A stretch of 64,000 nt of DNA, from contig OZ220090.1 of assembly GCA_964291625.2 (NCBI GenBank), forward strand, positions 1,024,001 through 1,088,000, read 5' to 3'. Below are positions 9,344 through 64,000 of this stretch, piece after piece. The first letter of the stretch is position 1. Each line of letters opens with the position of its first letter. Source of the stretch: Candidatus Latescibacterota bacterium. Its GTDB lineage: Bacteria; Latescibacterota; UBA2968; UBA8231. The notes under the pieces are model-generated. The model did not search any database. It was not told the DNA's origin and saw only the letters and a list, made by a program, of their open reading frames with translations. Made by a program: the position numbers and the translations under genes.

Positions 9344-10564
9344 TCAGGCCGCCCGGGCGACTCTCCCGGCTCCGTCACGCAGGCGGCGGACCCTCCGGGC
9401 GAGATCGGCGACGAAATCCAGCAACTGGCCGACCTCCCCGGACAGGTCGAGGGACACGACCTCCAGCCGCTTCCCCGAGTGGCGGACCTGGTACTCCGCC
9501 GGCTGCGCCTCTCCCTTCGCGTAGATCAGCAGGCCGCCGGGCAGATCGAGGGCGGTGGCGTAGGCCAGGAGCTGGTAGAGGTCGGCGTTGGGGACTTCTC
9601 GCCCGCCGCTGATGTTCTTGTACTTCGCATCGCCGACGAAGGTGCAGGTCCGGCCCTCCCACCACGACAAGTCGGGCCTGAGCCGGATGTCCCCACCCTC
9701 GTCGAGGGTGACCCGGGGAGTGCGGTCATCGGAGCGGAAGGTATGCTCGGAGGCCCCGAGTTCCTCCCGCAGCGCCCGGGTCACGAAGCCCTGGAAGACC
9801 TTGTTCATGTCCATCAGGAAGCCGGGCGCGCGCAGGCCGCCCCGGTCGGTCTCGAAAGCTGTGTGCCGCAGGATGAGGCGTGACAGGGCCACGACCTCGC
9901 GGTAGTGCTCGTTCAACCGGTCGAACTGGATATCCGGCACCTCCTTCGGTGGGAAAGAGACCCGCGATACGTTGTCGAGCATCGCCGCGACCCAGCGGAG
10001 TCCGCCGCGGGAAGGCGCGTGCCGGATGCGCATCTGCCCGAGCAGCACGGCCGCCGCCTTCACCAACTGGTTCGCCAGGATGTCCTCCGTGAACTCGTCG
10101 TACCGAACCTCTACCGGAAGTGGCCGATCGAACCTGCGCCGGAGCTGCTCGGCGACCAGGATCCGTCCCCGGACCGTGTGCAGCGCCTCCTCCTCGGTCC
10201 GGTACCCGTGGAGCAGCCCGCGCGCGAAGGCCCGCCGGGCGGCGGAGACAAAGGCGGGAGCCAGCGTCTCGGTCAGCGTATCCGCCTCCTCGAAGGCGAA
10301 GCGCTCCTCCCGCAGATCGACCTCTCCCATCGCGTAGGAGGCGAGGAACAGCACCCGCGATATCTCCAGCTTGGGGCGGATGGATACCGAGAGATCGCCG
10401 AGCTCGAGGGCGCCGATGGTGGAGCCGGGTGTCAGGTACCAGGAGTCGTCGCCCGGAGCGGGCTCGATGTTCAGGGACGGTACCACACGGAGGGCGTCGC
10501 GCTCCGGCGGGGACAATGGCTCGGGGCCGCACCTCGTGTGCTCCTGAAGATCAAGCCTCCGCAT
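9344..10564 (-). CDS. mcrC: McrC-family restriction endonuclease subunit
   Basis: GLLHGY, VRGRI, YDEFTEDILANQ, DMNKVFQGFV, PD-(D/E)xK core LRPDL...GDAKYK, DLYQLLAY; ATG 10564 overlaps the end of mcrB. Confidence 0.9.
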   Translation of the reverse strand: MRRLDLQEHTRCGPEPLSPPERDALRVVPSLNIEPAPGDDSWYLTPGSTIGALELGDLSVSIRPKLEISRVLFLASYAMGEVDLREERFAFEEADTLTETLAPAFVSAARRAFARGLLHGYRTEEEALHTVRGRILVAEQLRRRFDRPLPVEVRYDEFTEDILANQLVKAAAVLLGQMRIRHAPSRGGLRWVAAMLDNVSRVSFPPKEVPDIQFDRLNEHYREVVALSRLILRHTAFETDRGGLRAPGFLMDMNKVFQGFVTRALREELGASEHTFRSDDRTPRVTLDEGGDIRLRPDLSWWEGRTCTFVGDAKYKNISGGREVPNADLYQLLAYATALDLPGGLLIYAKGEAQPAEYQVRHSGKRLEVVSLDLSGEVGQLLDFVADLARRVRRLRDGAGRVARAA

Positions 10565-12077
10565 CGTCGGCCCCGGTACTCTCGGAGTCGATCTCCTCGG
10601 GGCCGCCTTCCAGGGCCGCGCGCTCGACTTCACGCCGCAGCCTGTCCAGATCGAACCCGTCGATGCGGTCCTGCTGCCCGAAGAGCTGCTCCTCGATGTA
10701 GGGACGGACGTTGTGCTGCCAGGTCAGGCGGATCATCTCTTCGTCGAGCCCGTTGCGCATGAAGTAGCTCGGACCGATGGCCCCCTGCTGGTCCTCCAGC
10801 TTCTCGTTGGCCCGGTCGACGAGGTCCGCGACCCAACCCATCCCGCTGGCGTTTCTGGCCAACCAGCGCCTGAGAAGCCCCTTGACGGGCGGTTCCTTCG
10901 GGTGGAACTCCACGAAATGGAACCGCCGCCGCAGGGCGAGGTCCACCAGCGCGATGGAGCGGTCGGCGGTGTTCATGGTGCCGATGATGTAGAGATTCCC
11001 AGGGAGGGAGAAGGGCTCGTCGGAGTATTGGAGGCGCATCTCCTCGTCGCGGTACTCCAGCAGGAAGTACAGCTCGCCGAAGACCTTGGCGAGGTTGCCG
11101 CGGTTGATCTCGTCGATGACGAGGAAGTGCCTGGCCTCCGGCTCTTCCCGGGCCCTCTCGGCCATGTCGCGCAGGGGCCCGTTCCTGAGCTCGAAACCTG
11201 CCTGGCCGTCTCTCAGGGTTGGGCGGTAGCCTTGGACGAAGTCCTCGTAGGCATACGACGGGTGGAACTGGACGAGCCGCACCCGCTCGGCCGATCCGGC
11301 CAGGCACGCCGCTATCCTCCGGGCGGCGTAGGTCTTGCCCGTGCCGGGGGGGCCCTGGAAGATGACCTGGCCCTTGTCGTCAAGCAGTTTCTCGATGACC
11401 TGAAGGGAGCCGGTGTCGAACAGGAGTTCGTCCGCCAGGGCTGCCAGGGACGCCGTCGGCTTCGCGGAAGGCCTGGTGGAAGGAGCTGACCACCACCACA
11501 CGATCCCCTGAGCGTCGAGTCGGTTGGCGGGTCTGTCCAATTTCAGCGCCCTGGCTCTGTCCACGAGCCGATCGAGGAATCGAAGGGCATGCTCATAGCT
11601 CGCCACTGTATCGGCGCCCATGGGCGGCTTGTCATAACCTGCCTGGCGATAGGCCTTGTCGAAGGACCTGAATCTGATGGGTGCATACGCTGGGTCCAGT
11701 GCCATCAGCAGGACCGAGACCGGTCTCGGATGGACCCTGGGCTCTCCTGGTGTGGATGCCTTGGCAATGAAAGCCCGCATCCGCTCGCCGGGCGCCGTGT
11801 CGCCTTCTGCCCACAGCGCTCGCAGGGCTTGCAGCGCGTCTTCCGGACGGGACTCGATCCAACTCAGTATGGCGCCTGTCATGAGCTCCGTTGATAGTTT
11901 CTCGAGCCCTTTCTCTACGAGTGAGACCCACTCGCTGTCACCGGAGAGCACCGCCCGGCGTGCCTGGCGAAGGTTCTCGACTATCTCGGGGATGTCCTGC
12001 TGCGCCTGGTCGAGCTTCCCAGATTCGATGAACCGTTGGGCTTCCCTGAGGTAGGCGTCGAATCTCGACTCGCTCAT
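10551..12077 (-). CDS. mcrB: McrB-family AAA+ GTPase with a non-canonical N-terminal domain
   Basis: GPPGTGKT, VQFHPSYAYEDFVQG, IDEINRGN, GTMNTADRSIALVDLALRRRF. Confidence 0.92.
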   Translation of the reverse strand: MSESRFDAYLREAQRFIESGKLDQAQQDIPEIVENLRQARRAVLSGDSEWVSLVEKGLEKLSTELMTGAILSWIESRPEDALQALRALWAEGDTAPGERMRAFIAKASTPGEPRVHPRPVSVLLMALDPAYAPIRFRSFDKAYRQAGYDKPPMGADTVASYEHALRFLDRLVDRARALKLDRPANRLDAQGIVWWWSAPSTRPSAKPTASLAALADELLFDTGSLQVIEKLLDDKGQVIFQGPPGTGKTYAARRIAACLAGSAERVRLVQFHPSYAYEDFVQGYRPTLRDGQAGFELRNGPLRDMAERAREEPEARHFLVIDEINRGNLAKVFGELYFLLEYRDEEMRLQYSDEPFSLPGNLYIIGTMNTADRSIALVDLALRRRFHFVEFHPKEPPVKGLLRRWLARNASGMGWVADLVDRANEKLEDQQGAIGPSYFMRNGLDEEMIRLTWQHNVRPYIEEQLFGQQDRIDGFDLDRLRREVERAALEGGPEEIDSESTGADDAEA

Positions 12078-59342: not shown

Positions 59343-60182
59343 TCAGCGTGAGAAGGGGTGCTTGATCCGCCCCCATCCCGCGGGGGACGCCTGGGTGTCC
59401 GTTGGCCTCAGGCCGACCAGCACCGCCTGCGCGAAACCGCTGGCGTCCTCCTGCAGACCCCTGGCTCCGCCAGGCGGAGCGGGATAGGTGATGACACTGT
59501 AGCAGTTCGAACGTCCAACGCCATTGTTGTCGGCGGCGAGCACGGCCAGGGTGATGGTATCACCGATCCTCAGGTCGGAGCGTACGCTCTCCCCGGGGCC
59601 CGCGTCGCTCACCACGTCGAAGACCGTGAGCGACAACTCGACGCGCGTCACCTTCTCATCCGGGTCCAGGGCACCCACCCCGTGGATGAACTCCGCGGAG
59701 TTCCGCCACTCGCCTACGGCTCCGGTGTAGCGGATCGAGGGGCCGTCCTCGGCGAAGGGAAGCACCTCGACTCGCTGCGCCGTGGCCGCGTCCGAGGCGA
59801 CTTCCTGGGGCGCCACCTCGACCATGAACTCGAACTGGCCGTCGCGCCAGATGTCGAAGGGCCGATCGGAGATCTCATGATCGATTCGCTCGAAGGCGAC
59901 GAGCACGCGATCCGGCGGCAGCACGGCAATCCAGATCTCGATCCAGAAAGTACCCGGGCAGTACCCATGGGCGGATTCGCTGGGGTCCGCCCACGTATCG
60001 ATTTCCTTCAGCATCGGCGGACCGATGATCTGCCGCCAGTCCGTCAGGTCACCGTCCACCTGTATGGCATGGGCGTCCGTCAGCACAGGGATCTCGAGCG
60101 GCAGCAGGACCGGAGGCTCCCCGGCCGAGCAGATCCCTGGCAGCGCAGCGAACAGCAGGACAAGGGCTGGCGCTCTCAGCAT
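59343..60182 (-). CDS. Array copy U1: secreted DOMON/CBM9-like protein (279 aa), tail GWGRIK
   Basis: Signal peptide ending CSA, IQVDGDLTDW, WRDGQFEF. Confidence 0.85.
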   Translation of the reverse strand: MLRAPALVLLFAALPGICSAGEPPVLLPLEIPVLTDAHAIQVDGDLTDWRQIIGPPMLKEIDTWADPSESAHGYCPGTFWIEIWIAVLPPDRVLVAFERIDHEISDRPFDIWRDGQFEFMVEVAPQEVASDAATAQRVEVLPFAEDGPSIRYTGAVGEWRNSAEFIHGVGALDPDEKVTRVELSLTVFDVVSDAGPGESVRSDLRIGDTITLAVLAADNNGVGRSNCYSVITYPAPPGGARGLQEDASGFAQAVLVGLRPTDTQASPAGWGRIKHPFSR

Positions 60183-60228
60183 GGCATGCCTCGTTGCGGC
60201 CTGCTACGTGTCCAGCGACGCCCGACCG

Positions 60229-61065
60229 CTACCATCTCAAGAGCCGCTTGAGCGAGCCCCAGCCCGAGGGCAGCACCACCGTCGGAGGCGGTTCCAGGCC
60301 GACCAGCACCGCCTGTGCGAAACCGCTGGCGTCTTCCTGCAGCCCCCTGGCTCCGCCAGGAGGAGCGGAATAGTAGATGACCTGGTAGCAGTTTCCATCG
60401 TCATTTTCGTTGGCGGCGATCACGGCCAGGGTGATGGTGTCACCGATCTTCAAGTCGGAACGAACGCTCTCCCCGGGGCCCGCGTCGCTCACCACGTCAA
60501 AGACCGTGAGCGACAACTCGACGCGCGTCACCTTCTCATCCGGGTCCAGAGCAGCCACTCCGTGGATGAACTCCGCCGTGTTCCGCCATCGGCCCACAGC
60601 TCCGGCGTAGCGGATCGAGAGGCCGCCCTCGGCAAAGGGAAGCACCTCGACCCGCTGCGCCGTGGCCGCGTCCGAGGCGACTTCCTGGGGCGCCACCTCG
60701 ATCATGAACTCGAACTGGCCGTCGCGCCAGATGTCTCTGACACTATCTGAGATCGAATGGTCCCATCGGTCGAAGGCGACGAGCACGCGATCCGGCGGCA
60801 CCACGGCAATCCAGATCTCGATCCTGAAAAGCTGCTGGTGGCAGAACGCATAGTCGGATTCGGTGGGGTCCGCCCATACGTCACGTTCCGTGAGCATGGG
60901 CGCACCGATCACCTGCCGCCAGTCCCCCAGGTCACCGTCCACCTGAATGGCATCGGCGTCCGTCAGCACCGGGATCTCGAGCGGCAGCAGGACCGGAGGG
61001 TCCCCAGCCGAGCAGATCCCTGGAAGGGCGGCGAACAGCAGCACAAGGGCTATCGCTCTCAGCAT
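60229..61065 (-). CDS. Array copy U2 (278 aa), tail GWGSLKRLLRW
   Basis: ATG after GAGG RBS; paralog of U1. Confidence 0.85.
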   Translation of the reverse strand: MLRAIALVLLFAALPGICSAGDPPVLLPLEIPVLTDADAIQVDGDLGDWRQVIGAPMLTERDVWADPTESDYAFCHQQLFRIEIWIAVVPPDRVLVAFDRWDHSISDSVRDIWRDGQFEFMIEVAPQEVASDAATAQRVEVLPFAEGGLSIRYAGAVGRWRNTAEFIHGVAALDPDEKVTRVELSLTVFDVVSDAGPGESVRSDLKIGDTITLAVIAANENDDGNCYQVIYYSAPPGGARGLQEDASGFAQAVLVGLEPPPTVVLPSGWGSLKRLLRW

Positions 61066-61111
61066 GGCACGCCTCGCTGCGGCCTGCTGCGTGGCCAACG
61101 ACGCTTGGCCG

Positions 61112-61939
61112 CTACCATCTCAAGAGCCGCTTGAGCGAGCCCCAGCCCGAGGGCAGCACCACCGTCGGAGGCGGCTCCAGGCCGACGAGCACCGCCGGCG
61201 CGAAGCCGCTGGCGTCTTCCTGCAGCCCCCTGGCTCCGCCAGGAGGAGCGGAATAGTAGATGACCTGGTAGCAGTTTCCATCGTCATTTTCGTTGGCGGC
61301 GATCACGGCCAGGGTGATGGTGTCACCGATCTTCAAGTCGGAACGAACGCTCTCCCCGGGGCCCGCGTCGCTCACCACGTCAAAGACCGTGAGCGACAAC
61401 TCGACGCGCGTCACCTTCTCATCCGGGTCCAGAGCAGCCACTCCGTGGATGAACTCCGCCGTGTTCCGCCATCGGCCCACAGCTCCGGCGTAGCGGACCG
61501 AGAGGCCACCCTCGGCAAAGGGCAGCACCTCGACTCTCTGCGCCGTGGCGGCGTCCGAGGCGACCTCCTGGGGCGCCACCTCGATCATGAACTCGAACTG
61601 GCCGTCGCGCCAGATGTCTCTGACGTTACCTGAGATCGAACGATCCCATCGGTCGAAGGCGACGAGCACGCGATCCGGCGGCAGCACGGAAATCCAGATC
61701 TCGATCCAGAAAGTCGACGGACAGTACGCGGATTCGCTGGGGTCCCCCCACATGTCGATCATCGCGAGCGTCGGAGGACCGATGACCTGCCGCCAGTCCG
61801 CCAAGTCACCATCCACCTGTATGGCATCCTCATTCGTCAGCACCGGGATCTCGAGCGGCGGCAGGACCGGAGGGTCCCCGGCCGAGCAGATCCCCGGCAG
61901 CGCGGCGAACAGCAGCACAAGGGATATCGCTCTCAGCAA
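61112..61939 (-). CDS. Array copy U3 (275 aa)
   Basis: TTG at the position of the U1/U2 ATG; paralog. Confidence 0.85.
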   Translation of the reverse strand: MLRAISLVLLFAALPGICSAGDPPVLPPLEIPVLTNEDAIQVDGDLADWRQVIGPPTLAMIDMWGDPSESAYCPSTFWIEIWISVLPPDRVLVAFDRWDRSISGNVRDIWRDGQFEFMIEVAPQEVASDAATAQRVEVLPFAEGGLSVRYAGAVGRWRNTAEFIHGVAALDPDEKVTRVELSLTVFDVVSDAGPGESVRSDLKIGDTITLAVIAANENDDGNCYQVIYYSAPPGGARGLQEDASGFAPAVLVGLEPPPTVVLPSGWGSLKRLLRW

Positions 61940-61985
61940 GGCGAGCCTCGCTGTGGCCTGCTCCGTGGCCAACGACGCCCGACCG

Positions 61986-62825
61986 CTACCATCTCAAGAG
62001 CCGCTTGAGCGAGCCCCATCCCGAAGGCGACACAACCGTACGACGCGGTTCCAAGCCGACCAGCACCGCCTGCGCGAAACCGCTGGCATCCTCCCGCAGA
62101 ATCCTGGCAGGAGGGAATGGATAGGTGACGACCGCGACGCACCAGTCACAAGGATCGACATCGACGCCTATCACCCCCAAGGTGATGGCATCACCGACCT
62201 TCAGGTCCGACCGAACGCTCTCCTGGAGCCCCACGTCGCTGACCACGTCGAACACCGTGAGCGACACCTCCACGCGCGTCTCGATCTCGTGATTGGCCTT
62301 GGGTGGGTCCGAGTCGGTCACCCCGTGGAGGTACTCGCTCGTGTTCCGCCACGCGCCCAAGGCTCCGGCGTAGCGGACCGAGAGGCCGCCTTCGGCAAAG
62401 GGCAGCACCTCGACTCTCTGCGCCGTGGCCGCATCCGAGGCCACCTCCTGAGGCGCCACCTCCACCATGAACTCGAACTGGCCCTCGCGCCATCCATCGA
62501 CTACCTGGTCGCTGACCTCCGTGTCTCGTCTCTCGAAGGCGAGGAGCACACGGTCCGGCGGCAGCACGGCAATCCAGACATCAAGGTGATAATCCAACAA
62601 ATCTCTCATGGGGTCGCCCTCGGTGACGTCCCCCCACATGTCGATCGGCGCGAGCGTCGGCGGACCGATGACCTGCCGCCAGTCCGCCAGGTCACCGTCC
62701 ACCTGTATGGCATGGGCGTCCGTCAGCACAGGGATCTCGAGCGGCGGCAGGACCGGAGGCTCCCCGGCCGAGCAGACCCCTGGAAGGGCGGCCAACAGGA
62801 CCACGGCCGTCATGCTTCTCAGCAT
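61986..62825 (-). CDS. Array copy U4 (279 aa), the most divergent
   Basis: ATG start; paralog with distinct variable segments. Confidence 0.85.
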   Translation of the reverse strand: MLRSMTAVVLLAALPGVCSAGEPPVLPPLEIPVLTDAHAIQVDGDLADWRQVIGPPTLAPIDMWGDVTEGDPMRDLLDYHLDVWIAVLPPDRVLLAFERRDTEVSDQVVDGWREGQFEFMVEVAPQEVASDAATAQRVEVLPFAEGGLSVRYAGALGAWRNTSEYLHGVTDSDPPKANHEIETRVEVSLTVFDVVSDVGLQESVRSDLKVGDAITLGVIGVDVDPCDWCVAVVTYPFPPARILREDASGFAQAVLVGLEPRRTVVSPSGWGSLKRLLRW

Positions 62826-62878
62826 GGGACCCCTGTCAGATGGGCGATCAGCAAAGCAGGTGGAACGCCAGCCGGCCG

Positions 62879-63712
62879 CTACCATCGCCAGAGACGCTTG
62901 AGCGAGCCCCATCCCGAGGGCCGGACCACCGTAGGAGGCGGCTCCAGACCCACCAGCACCGCAGGCGCGAAGCCGCTGGCGTCCTCCTGCAGACGCCTGG
63001 CTCCGGCAGGGGGATAGTCGATGACACTGTAGCAGCTCGAACGTCCATCGCCATTGTTGTCAGCGGCGATCACGGCCAGGGTGATGGCATCACCGATCCT
63101 CAGGTCGGAGCGCACGCTCTCCCCGGGGCCCGCATCGCTCACCACGTCGAAGACCGTGAGCGACAACTCGACGCGCGTCACCTTCTCATCCAAGTCCAGA
63201 GTACCCACCCCATGGATGAACTCCGCCGTGTTCCGCCATTGGCCCACAGCACCGGTGTAGCGGATCGAGAGGCCGCCCTCGGCGAAGGGAAGCACCTCGA
63301 CCCGTTGCGCCGTGGCCGCGTCCGAGGCGACTTCCTGGGGCGCCACCTCGATCATGAACTCGAACTGGCCGTCCCGCCAGATGTCGAAGGGCCGATCGGA
63401 GATCTCATGATCGATTCGCTCGAAGGCGACGAGCACGCGATCCGGCGGCACCACGGCAATCCATATCTCGATCCAGAAAGTACCCGGGCAGAACGCATAA
63501 TCGGACTCTGTGGGGTCCGTCCATACGTCACGTACCGTGAGCAAGGGCGCACCGGTGACCTGCCGCCAGTCCGTCAGGTCACCGTCCACCTGCATGGCAG
63601 CGGCGTCCGCCAGCACCGGGATCTCGAGCGGCGGCAGGACCGGAGGGTCCCCGGCCGAGCAGATCCCCGGCAGCGCGGCGAACAGCAGGACAAGGGATAT
63701 CGCTCTCAGCAA
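62879..63712 (-). CDS. Array copy U5 (277 aa)
   Basis: TTG start; paralog. Confidence 0.85.
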   Translation of the reverse strand: MLRAISLVLLFAALPGICSAGDPPVLPPLEIPVLADAAAMQVDGDLTDWRQVTGAPLLTVRDVWTDPTESDYAFCPGTFWIEIWIAVVPPDRVLVAFERIDHEISDRPFDIWRDGQFEFMIEVAPQEVASDAATAQRVEVLPFAEGGLSIRYTGAVGQWRNTAEFIHGVGTLDLDEKVTRVELSLTVFDVVSDAGPGESVRSDLRIGDAITLAVIAADNNGDGRSSCYSVIDYPPAGARRLQEDASGFAPAVLVGLEPPPTVVRPSGWGSLKRLWRW

Positions 63713-63758
63713 GGCGAGCCTCGCTGTGGCCTGCTCCGTGGCGAGCGACGCCCGGGCA

Positions 63759-64000
63759 CTACCATCTCAAGAGCCGCTTGAGCGAGCCCCAGCGCGAGGG
63801 CAGCACCACCGTCGGAGGCGGTTCCAGACCCACCAGCACCGCCGGCGCGAAACCGCTGGCGTCTTCCTGCAGACGCCTGGCCCCAGCGGAACCGTAGCCG
63901 GTGACCCTGTAGCAGTGTGAATCGCTTCCATCGCCATTGTTGTCGGCGGCGAGCACGGCCACGGTGATGGTATCACCGATCCTCAGGTCGGAGCGCACGC
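63759..64000 (-). CDS. Array copy U6 (C-terminal part only)
   Basis: VRSDLRIGDTITVAVL...QEDASGFAPAVLVG...RWGSLKRLLRW. Confidence 0.85.
   Translation of the reverse strand, partial: VRSDLRIGDTITVAVLAADNNGDGSDSHCYRVTGYGSAGARRLQEDASGFAPAVLVGLEPPPTVVLPSRWGSLKRLLRW

Follow-up and report, generated by a model that had tools for sequence, protein, structure and literature searches.

Analysis of a 64,000-nt stretch of a Candidatus Latescibacterota genome (G000:C2:1024001-1088000; hereafter the window, meaning the whole stretch at full length, with G000 as the organism's own genome) revealed a tandem array of six intact paralogous genes on the (−) strand, which occupies C2:1083346-1088595 and lies head-to-tail at window positions 59343-64595. 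Each of the six genes encodes a protein of 275-279 aa in which a modelled β-sandwich of ~235 residues, shown by structure comparison to have a divergent CBM9/DOMON fold, is preceded by a predicted signal peptide and followed by a short tail. The variable blocks of this domain occur as a limited set of variants that is shared across species and reshuffled by segmental gene conversion. On balance, and with confidence only somewhat better than even, we favor the interpretation that the array is an operon-like set of secreted, probably surface-sorted ligand binders (the ligands likely being glycans) whose specificities have diverged.

The listing of open reading frames (ORFs) and the six-way alignment bear out the original prediction of head-to-tail paralogs with a period of ~880 bp. 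Specifically, the period is ~883 nt, with start-to-start distances of 874-887 nt and spacers of 46-53 nt as calculated from the coordinates (Table 1). The original prediction had counted five complete copies and a partial sixth; five copies (c1 to c5) are complete in the window, but the sixth (c6) is merely clipped by the window end, finishing 595 nt beyond it, and is complete in the genome at G000:C2:1087759-1088595. The genome contains exactly six strong matches, with the array stopping at c6. Each copy is full length and has its own leader, start codon, and tail; identity to c1 is 67-82%, with Met120 and His167 invariant. The quoted framework motifs and the VR1, VR2, and VR4 strings (VR1 to VR4 being the four proposed variable blocks) are all present in the alignment. 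The framework, described as nearly invariant, does contain 134 invariant alignment columns, but c6 departs from some of the motifs called invariant, at GQFQFMIEVTSQDVAP and SITIFDVVSD. Likewise, the strings of all five listed VR4 blocks are present, but c2 and c3 carry the same VR4 and agree at 148/148 polymorphic nucleotide sites over aa 132-233. Upstream of c6 is an ~100-nt lower-GC spacer with a GAGGAG Shine-Dalgarno-like site and then a divergent HpcH-aldolase-like gene, while an M81/MlrC-type peptidase gene lies downstream of c1 on the same strand. The best reading of this layout is that it is operon-like, with the copies co-transcribed. Scans for consensus promoters (none above shuffles at the spacers or array) and terminators (a single terminator-like match inside c1 at window 59955-59967, within chance expectation) are uninformative for this phylum, and Tandem Repeats Finder, whose longest period is 500, gave no output and is uninformative for this array.

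Comparison of structures supported the predicted CBM9/DOMON-like β-sandwich. An AlphaFold2 model built from a 30-sequence alignment (A3; the six copies, 18 database homologs, and six distant paralogs) is an 11-strand sandwich with a mean pLDDT of 77.9 and a pTM of 0.77, in which residues 1-23 and 262-279 are disordered. A Foldseek search of the PDB placed the CBM9 structures 7nwn, 7nwo, and 1i82 at the top (E about 1e-7). A second, Foldseek-independent structure search (VIA-align), which took in 48,161 chains, returned Thermotoga CBM9-2 (1i82_A; Z 18.2, root-mean-square deviation of 2.9 Å, 183 of 189 residues aligned) and a stand-alone Bacteroides protein (4jpq_B; Z 17.1, 197 residues aligned), followed by the gamma subunits of ethylbenzene dehydrogenase (2ivf_C; Z 12.2) and nitrite oxidoreductase (7b04_C; Z 10.7). 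All remaining matches had Z ≤ 8.5, including the DOMON-type 4qi3_B (Z 7.1) and 4zel_B (Z 6.0) and the cytochrome domains of cellobiose dehydrogenase (Z about 7). By structure comparison, the proteins have the CBM9 β-sandwich and also a DOMON-type fold. By sequence, c1 to c5 do not reach the gathering score of CBM9 (Pfam PF06452 CBM9_1, CAZy family 9), and wider relatives score 17-18 bits on the same domain versus a cut-off of 23.4. The statement that no characterized system matches the array holds for the family but not for the fold. The array proteins stand alone, with no enzyme domain in the Pfam scan of c1 to c5 or in the alignment, and the proposed secretion agrees with a signal-peptide-like leader at the N terminus.

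Next, we compared the array proteins with the ligand site of CBM9. In a published account (PMC8280721), the CBM9-2 of Thermotoga maritima (TmCBM9-2) clamps its sugar between Trp71 and Trp175, with Gln96 and Asn172 hydrogen-bonding glucose, while the aromatic clamp of CBM9.3 consists of Tyr and Trp. Among PDB sequences searched with the A3 profile, 1i82 was the sole match below E 0.01 (E 0.0015), and the alignment, made up of two weak hidden Markov model (HMM) segments, pairs W112 with Trp71 (index 72, offset by one because the chain is numbered 0-188), Q136 with Gln96, R241 with Asn172, and Q244 with Trp175. Because W112 and Q136 match while R241 and Q244 do not, half of the canonical CBM9 site appears to be kept and half replaced; the array family conserves the positions aligned with Trp71 and Gln96, and the second clamp Trp is retained in some distant paralogs (ATWRYAERF). 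The strand DAATAQRVEVLPF, part of the predicted binding core, is also kept in the array proteins. VR2 and VR4 flank two CBM9 clamp positions and cysteines covary between VR1 and VR4 (see below), indirect clues that may point to the canonical CBM9 ligand site. A deduction from strand alternation that would have placed VR1, VR2, and VR4 at one end of the sandwich was dropped, because the same logic separates the CBM9 clamp positions to opposite ends, contradicting the solved structure.

Variation, including in-frame indels, proved to be focused in discrete blocks, as had been proposed. The four blocks (residues 57-81, 100-111, 156-178, and 215-242; 88 of 240 mature residues) contain 48/60 of the most variable mature positions, as ranked by position-wise entropy across 65 family proteins, and 19/60 of these positions fall in predicted strands versus 96/240 residues overall. 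Trees of 19 intact copies from five genomes, a set that leaves out partial or frameshifted copies, namely two pieces from the related genome G002 and an end piece from G004, and that also served for the tests below, revealed a split into two deep types. Type A carries one Cys in VR1 and one in VR4, whereas in type B VR1 is free of Cys, VR4 carries a CxxC, and 3-4 residues are inserted past strand 7 (in c4, 4 residues, PPKANH). At least one copy of each type is found in every array genome, and type A is the expanded one. Cysteine patterns could be parsed in 58 of 82 family proteins, with (VR1, VR4) counts of 1, 1 in 32 proteins and 0, 2 in 20, followed by 3, 1 and 0, 3 (2 proteins each) and 1, 2 and 3, 2 (1 protein each). 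This covariation is the best evidence that VR1 and VR4 may be in contact. In the same 58 proteins, VR1 takes 47 distinct forms and VR4 takes 49, on a few themes, and one VR2 string, RIDHEISDRPFDIW, is common to six copies from four genomes.

Analysis of substitution patterns confirmed a constant framework under purifying selection, where pN/pS (the ratio of non-synonymous to synonymous differences per site) was 0.04-0.3 while pS was 0.2-0.3. Pairwise Nei-Gojobori dN/dS among the six copies was 0.36-0.61, and in 15-codon windows pN/pS ranged from 0.04-0.10 at aa 126-145 (pS about 0.25-0.29) up to 1.27-1.36 in VR4. Since pN/pS is low in spite of a pS of ~0.25, selection on the protein maintains the framework, beyond the effect of homogenization. 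Across the 19 copies, pN/pS was 1.11 for VR1 (bootstrap interval 0.53-2.06), 0.87 for VR4 (0.63-1.25), 0.64 for VR2, and 0.48 for VR3, versus 0.26-0.53 for the framework blocks. Maximum-likelihood codon models gave an omega of 0.67-0.80 for 72 block codons, 0.25-0.32 for VR3, and 0.25 for 143 framework codons, so that VR3, which had been listed as a variable block, behaves like framework. Among orthologs of the terminal type-A copy (c1, with counterparts in G002, G006, and G007), the variable blocks showed a pN/pS of 0.87-1.59 versus 0.28-0.37 for the framework. Further, c5 is a close ortholog of the G002 copy p4; in the 72 block codons, a single non-synonymous change separates the two, at a pS of 0.04. 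Type-A blocks thus evolve approximately threefold faster than the framework, but the excess of non-synonymous change over neutrality that the original prediction expected was not demonstrated. Its phrase "antibody-like hypervariable" does not hold as worded: block omega is below 1, the variant set is limited and shared, and type-B blocks are framework-like.

Exchange between copies was examined with a GENECONV-like test, in which the longest run of agreeing polymorphic sites is compared with 300 permutations of site order. In 45/171 copy pairs, the observed run was longer than in all 300 permutations. The G002 copy p5 is a chimera that has aa 10-161 in common with p1 and aa 62-233 with p2, thereby joining one VR1 to a different VR4, and trees built from N- and C-terminal halves are incongruent.

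We then searched for the array in 41 genomes (G000 and 40 relatives). Strong tandem matches were confined to five of the 10 genomes of its own genus (G000, G002, G004, G006, and G007); G001 and G009 gave weak single matches alone, G003, G005, and G008 (76-87% complete) gave no array match, and other genera of the taxonomic family contained only paralogs of 25-36% identity. Comparison of the locus across these genomes uncovered syntenic arrays of 2-8 copies: six in G000, 7-8 in G002 (eight slots, one frameshifted), three in G007, two in G006, and at least three in G004, where the array is at a contig end. The same genes flank the array in G002, G006, and G007, marking one syntenic locus, and these flanks are 85-97% identical in translation versus 60-88% for the array copies. 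The frameshift in G002 splits the slot at L032:8788-9635 into two overlapping frames. G002 also has an extra 385-aa ORF (L032:14097-15251) between the array and the aldolase gene, not found at this place in G000, with a HELGHALGIDH zinc-protease-like motif and a C terminus resembling the sorting domain of the type IX secretion system (T9SS). Titles of public records of metagenome-assembled genomes (MAGs) within one GTDB genus disagree, reading Gemmatimonadaceae twice and Candidatus Latescibacterota twice (loci L020-L023).

The array is a derived, genus-restricted branch of a large family of ~300-aa proteins. A word-indexed search found 82 proteins, each at least 45% identical, all derived from metagenomes or MAGs and none with a recorded Pfam domain; two database entries (P0070 and P0082) are garbled read-throughs of neighboring copies. 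An exhaustive profile search with a threshold of E ≤ 1e-3 returned 1181 representative clusters, of which 628 reached ≤ 1e-10 and 198 reached ≤ 1e-30; a length of about 300 aa predominates. In a domain scan of 20 of the 150 representatives listed, several relatives had a sub-threshold CBM9_1 match on the same domain, and 13 were long (>600 aa), with the domain N-terminal or internal; 10/13 of these end in FlgD_ig/Por_Secre_tail, the T9SS sorting domain. The nearest Atlas clusters, in which 13-94% of members have CBM9_1, occur most often in Candidatus Latescibacterota, Gemmatimonadota, and Candidatus Poribacteria. Canonical relatives share a conserved His at the predicted mature N terminus (..A-H-A / H-I/V-G-D-E-I-Y) and a DGDH(S/T)GG motif; the array subfamily is without this His, the motif, and ~17 residues after it. 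For two canonical paralogs, neither Pfam nor NCBIfam yielded a usable match. In G000, the near-tandem canonical clusters at C1:3471493-3491438 and C1:3545439-3548220 hold 9 paralogs in all, whose same loop positions vary as in the array, and their His and DGDH(S/T)GG motif may form a metal site.

A further shared feature is the tail, with the consensus (T/S)-x-V-x(2-4)-(S/G/T)-W-(G/A)-x-(I/L)-K-x(2-8)-COOH. Array tails read GWGxLKRLLRW or GWGRIKHPFSR, as exemplified by AGWGRIKHPFSR in c1 (window 59343-59390). Across the 26,431 stop-to-stop frames of at least 100 aa in G000, 42 of the 60 occurrences of (W/F)G-x-(I/L)-K lie no more than 15 residues from the end. The variant W(G/A)-x-(I/L)-K lies near the C terminus of 46 ORFs, of which 26 match the family profile (the six array copies and 20 others, some also tandem). 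From the remaining 20, three chance-like cases were dropped and 17 scanned with Pfam, which matched seven (Cache, 2; LTD, 1; Temptin_C, 1; LRR, 2; and Lipocalin_4, 1, below cut-off) and left 10 without a match. Outside the array family, (W/F)G-x-(I/L)-K is found no more than 22 residues from the C terminus in 57/147 listed representatives, and many others end visibly in SWARIKASF. No Pfam or NCBIfam model matched the tail in the CBM9-like proteins scanned whole, and a literature string search for WGRIK, WGxIK, or SWGRIKA found no occurrence, returning unrelated words, and says little. Because G000 also holds a T9SS, with SprA and at least 10 C-terminal domain (CTD) matches over cut-off, the tail is an element separate from that system. 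It may be an undescribed sorting or anchoring tag.

Peptidase_A24 genes provide a lead in the same direction. G000 has only two full copies and one truncated copy (Table 1), 83-86% alike and all in the canonical cluster beside family genes, and the encoded protein keeps DLRFQRVPN and PGDAK, which we take to resemble the two catalytic Asp motifs of A24 peptidases. Among the 41 genomes, A24-like peptidases at E ≤ 1e-10 are limited to the five array-bearing genomes, G019 (another genus; five copies), and G039. A tailed family member lies within 1.5 kb of 12/15 A24-like loci in seven genomes, which are kin and not independent, and the array is not adjacent to an A24-like gene.

Close relatives of G000 are present in sponge samples. 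One sequencing run contains a 0.76 fraction of the sampled words, and approximately twenty others from 14 studies contain 0.13-0.32; several matching runs are labeled sponge metagenome, and two are sponge metatranscriptomes. Short-read contigs cover the array piecewise in 100-750-nt pieces, matching 28 (run X1), 30 (X2), 21 (RNA library X12), and 19 (X6) of 30 bins, where the gaps in X12 and X6 are uninformative. Contigs of an RNA library from a sponge metatranscriptome fall on c1, c2 start/spacer into c3, c4, and c5, a weak hint at array transcription. One 746-nt RNA-library contig (window 58707-59445, 14 mismatches) links c1, at its 3′ end, with the 5′ part of the M81/MlrC-like gene and may reflect read-through between the array and the downstream metabolic genes, with DNA carry-over possible. 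A literature search on CBM9/DOMON proteins in sponge symbionts, supplements aside, found no description of this family; the accessible parts of two studies list CBM9-annotated proteins in a sponge metaproteome (PMC6081418) and, for sponge Latescibacterota, CAZyme and repeat-protein classes only (PMC12993501).

In the interpretation that we favor, each gene would supply a signal peptide, a CBM9/DOMON-fold domain, and a tail drawn from a tag common to about 40 exported proteins, so that the products would be exported, probably to stay on or close to the cell surface as non-catalytic ligand-binding modules. Their ligands would most likely be glycans, either from the sponge matrix or from other cells. 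The predicted binding core (the Trp71/Gln96 positions and the conserved strand) would be kept, while the surrounding loops (VR1, VR2, and VR4) would differ by copy, with VR1 tied to VR4 by a predicted disulfide in type A. The repertoire probably originated from an old type-A/type-B gene pair and would have been enlarged by tandem duplication, with the loops altered by point substitutions and indels and their variants recombined through segmental gene conversion or unequal crossing-over; its diversity may be of adaptive value.

Several observations weigh against this interpretation. Sequence models offer no support, as neither Pfam (c1 to c5, c6 being outside the scan) nor NCBIfam (c1 and c4) returned any model at E ≤ 1. 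The ligand-residue alignment stands on HMM segments with independent E-values of 11 and 3.3. With Gln or Arg in place of the clamp residue Trp175 and Arg in place of Asn172, sugar clamping of the canonical CBM9 type is probably not intact. Confidence of the structural model within the domain is lowest at residues 61-80 and 221-230, i.e., in VR1 and VR4 (62-71). The block omega lies below 1 with confidence intervals that include 1, and relaxed constraint explains the numbers equally well; in type-B orthologs, the blocks (0.34-0.54) are as constrained as the framework (0.31-0.39). The hint of expression may stem from DNA in the RNA library. The neighbors are metabolic (M81 peptidase, oxidoreductase, racemase, aminotransferase, and aldolase), and the 14 ORFs scanned around the array include no glycan-use or secretion gene.

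The block omega values, being below 1, also fit neutral redundancy, an alternative to which we give limited but real credence, whereby equivalent copies were amplified, possibly for dosage, and the loops merely tolerate change. The type-A bootstrap intervals include 1, the same loops vary in the canonical paralog clusters of G000, as if permissive, copy number drifts from 2 to 8 among close species, and one G002 copy is frameshifted. Redundant copies would not, however, be expected to keep block variants between species, as seen for c5 and p4 and for the VR2 string of six copies, nor to show covarying VR1-VR4 cysteines, purifying selection on type-B blocks, and six intact genes with conserved leaders and tails. 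Surface-coat diversity, in which abundant exposed proteins vary their loops to evade phage receptor-binding proteins or recognition by sponge cells and do not bind a ligand, appears unlikely. It would accommodate the exported architecture with its shared C-terminal tag, mosaic loop reshuffling as in surface-antigen families, the faster evolution of the array than of its flanks, and the sponge-associated habitat suggested by run labels and contig matches. Nonetheless, the genes are all complete and similarly arranged, not divided into a single expression site and a stock of silent cassettes, the 14 neighboring ORFs scanned contain neither an invertase nor a recombinase, and the most conserved stretch of the array proteins is the CBM9 ligand-contact strand, which argues for retained binding.

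A cofactor-binding DOMON role, with heme or metal serving extracytoplasmic electron transfer or metal handling, seems highly improbable. The fold does match the two gamma subunits and the cellobiose dehydrogenase cytochrome domains, canonical relatives carry the N-terminal His and DGDH(S/T)GG motif, and Met120 and His167 do not vary, but the CBM9 matches are clearly stronger (Z 17-18), the array subfamily is without the His motif and DGDHSGG loop, no redox partner gene adjoins the array, and six diversified copies are ill-suited to a fixed cofactor role. An assembly artefact, in which collapsed or expanded strain variants of just one or two genes would have been assembled into a false tandem row, is very unlikely, to the point of being negligible. 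No contig spans the array, and a few join distant copies, as repeats would; against this, four other assemblies, including one that consists of a single 5.5-Mb contig, show the subtype order and flanks again, protein divergence between the copies (18-33%) is far beyond strain variation, and X1 gives exact pieces on its 28 bins. More ambitious than the favored reading, and in our view doubtful, is the proposal that the array is one cargo set of an undescribed export or sorting pathway marked by the tag (about 40 ligand-binding proteins), whose canonical carriers are paired across genera with an A24-type intramembrane aspartyl peptidase retaining both catalytic motifs, with the six genes forming a germline repertoire of surface binders for life in sponges, shuffled as gene conversion recombines loop variants among co-expressed paralogs.

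Among known systems, the array proteins share their β-sandwich with CBM9-2 of T. maritima xylanase 10A (1I82/1I8U) and Caldicellulosiruptor CBM9.3 (7NWN); they are likewise predicted to be non-catalytic and to conserve the Trp71 and Gln96 positions. In contrast, they are about 12% identical, have no Pfam CBM9_1 match, are altered at the Trp175 and Asn172 positions, have a shortened DENNH/DGDH loop, and form a tandem multigene family of stand-alone proteins with their own signal peptide and tag instead of serving as a glycoside hydrolase module. BACUNI_03838 of Bacteroides uniformis (4JPQ), a putative carbohydrate-binding protein that is uncharacterized, is also stand-alone and similar in size, with 9% identity; to our knowledge, it has no tandem diversified array and no W-G-x-I/L-K tail. 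A third comparison is the wider homologous canonical ~300-aa family (Latescibacterota, Gemmatimonadota, and Poribacteria-type), with the same architecture, tail (SW(G/A)RIKASF), and variable loops and a mature N terminus of H-I/V-G, from which the array subfamily differs by its restriction to half of one genus's genomes and by loss of the His motif, the DGDHSGG loop, and, relative to some members, the second clamp Trp.

Neisseria pilE/pilS, Borrelia vlsE, and Anaplasma msp2 are surface families diversified by segmental gene conversion. The array has in common with them variable blocks in a constant framework and mosaic exchange between nearby copies, but it consists of six full-length genes in one row, unlike antigenic-variation systems with one expression locus and promoterless partial cassettes. 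With targets of diversity-generating retroelements, it shares a putative ligand-binding scaffold with focused variation; here, the variation includes indels and is inherited between species. No reverse transcriptase was found among the neighboring ORFs, and the sole RVT_1 match of the genome (C2:85064-85699) lies ~1 Mb away; a template repeat was not searched for. The tail resembles T9SS CTDs and PEP-CTERM/exosortase tags in being a short C-terminal element on many unrelated exported proteins, and long family members carry the T9SS domain in its place. At about 12-20 residues and without a transmembrane helix, it is far shorter than that domain, and neither Por_Secre_tail nor FlgD_ig was found on c1 to c5 by Pfam, so that these are not recognizable T9SS cargo. 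The array is most likely a lineage-specific expansion, uncharacterized but not unprecedented in kind.

Latescibacterota- and Gemmatimonadota-type sponge symbionts are uncultured, and their host attachment, feeding, and tolerance have been deduced largely from "eukaryote-like" repeat proteins. The array offers a compact, testable case in which small single-domain proteins, predicted to be secreted, combine a known binding fold with a conserved predicted pocket and a naturally varied periphery. Changes in copy number at a fixed locus among sister species could serve as a natural experiment on how specificity diversifies by duplication and gene conversion, and the proteins are a possible scaffold for engineered binders. 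The tail and its pairing with A24 peptidases may outweigh the array itself, as they could point to undescribed sorting of exported proteins in a large uncultured group. If the loops are only permissive, the locus would be an ordinary lineage-specific expansion.

Table 1. Coordinates of the array genes and spacers (window positions) and of the A24-like genes (genome positions)
Feature	Position	Strand	Basis or remark
c1, last gene of array, type A, 279 aa	59343-60182	−	ORF listing, alignment
c2, type A, 278 aa	60229-61065	−	ORF listing, alignment
c3, type A, 275 aa	61112-61939	−	TTG start inferred by register with other copies
c4, sole type-B copy of G000, 279 aa	61986-62825	−	ORF listing, alignment, trees
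c5, type A, 277 aa	62879-63712	−	TTG start if read in register
c6, first gene of array, 278 aa	63759-64595 (within window 63759-64000)	−	C-terminal 80 codons in window
Span holding five intergenic spacers of 46, 46, 46, 53, and 46 nt	60183-63758	−	Coordinates
A24-like genes	G000:C1:3472924-3473973, 3484410-3484958, 3486790-3487848

Finally, the genes on the c1 side of the array encode M81/MlrC, GFO_IDH_MocA, MR_MLE, Aminotran_3, and Transglut_core proteins. Those on the c6 side encode HpcH_HpaI, Ldh_2, a 3-hydroxyisobutyrate-dehydrogenase type, an isochorismatase, a creatininase, a DDE_3 transposase, and an fn3/cadherin protein. The last two, an IS630-type DDE_3 transposase and a large fn3/cadherin-repeat protein, are located 9-11 kb past the array (L034:9288-10361 and 10391-11971; G000:C2:1097288-1099971).

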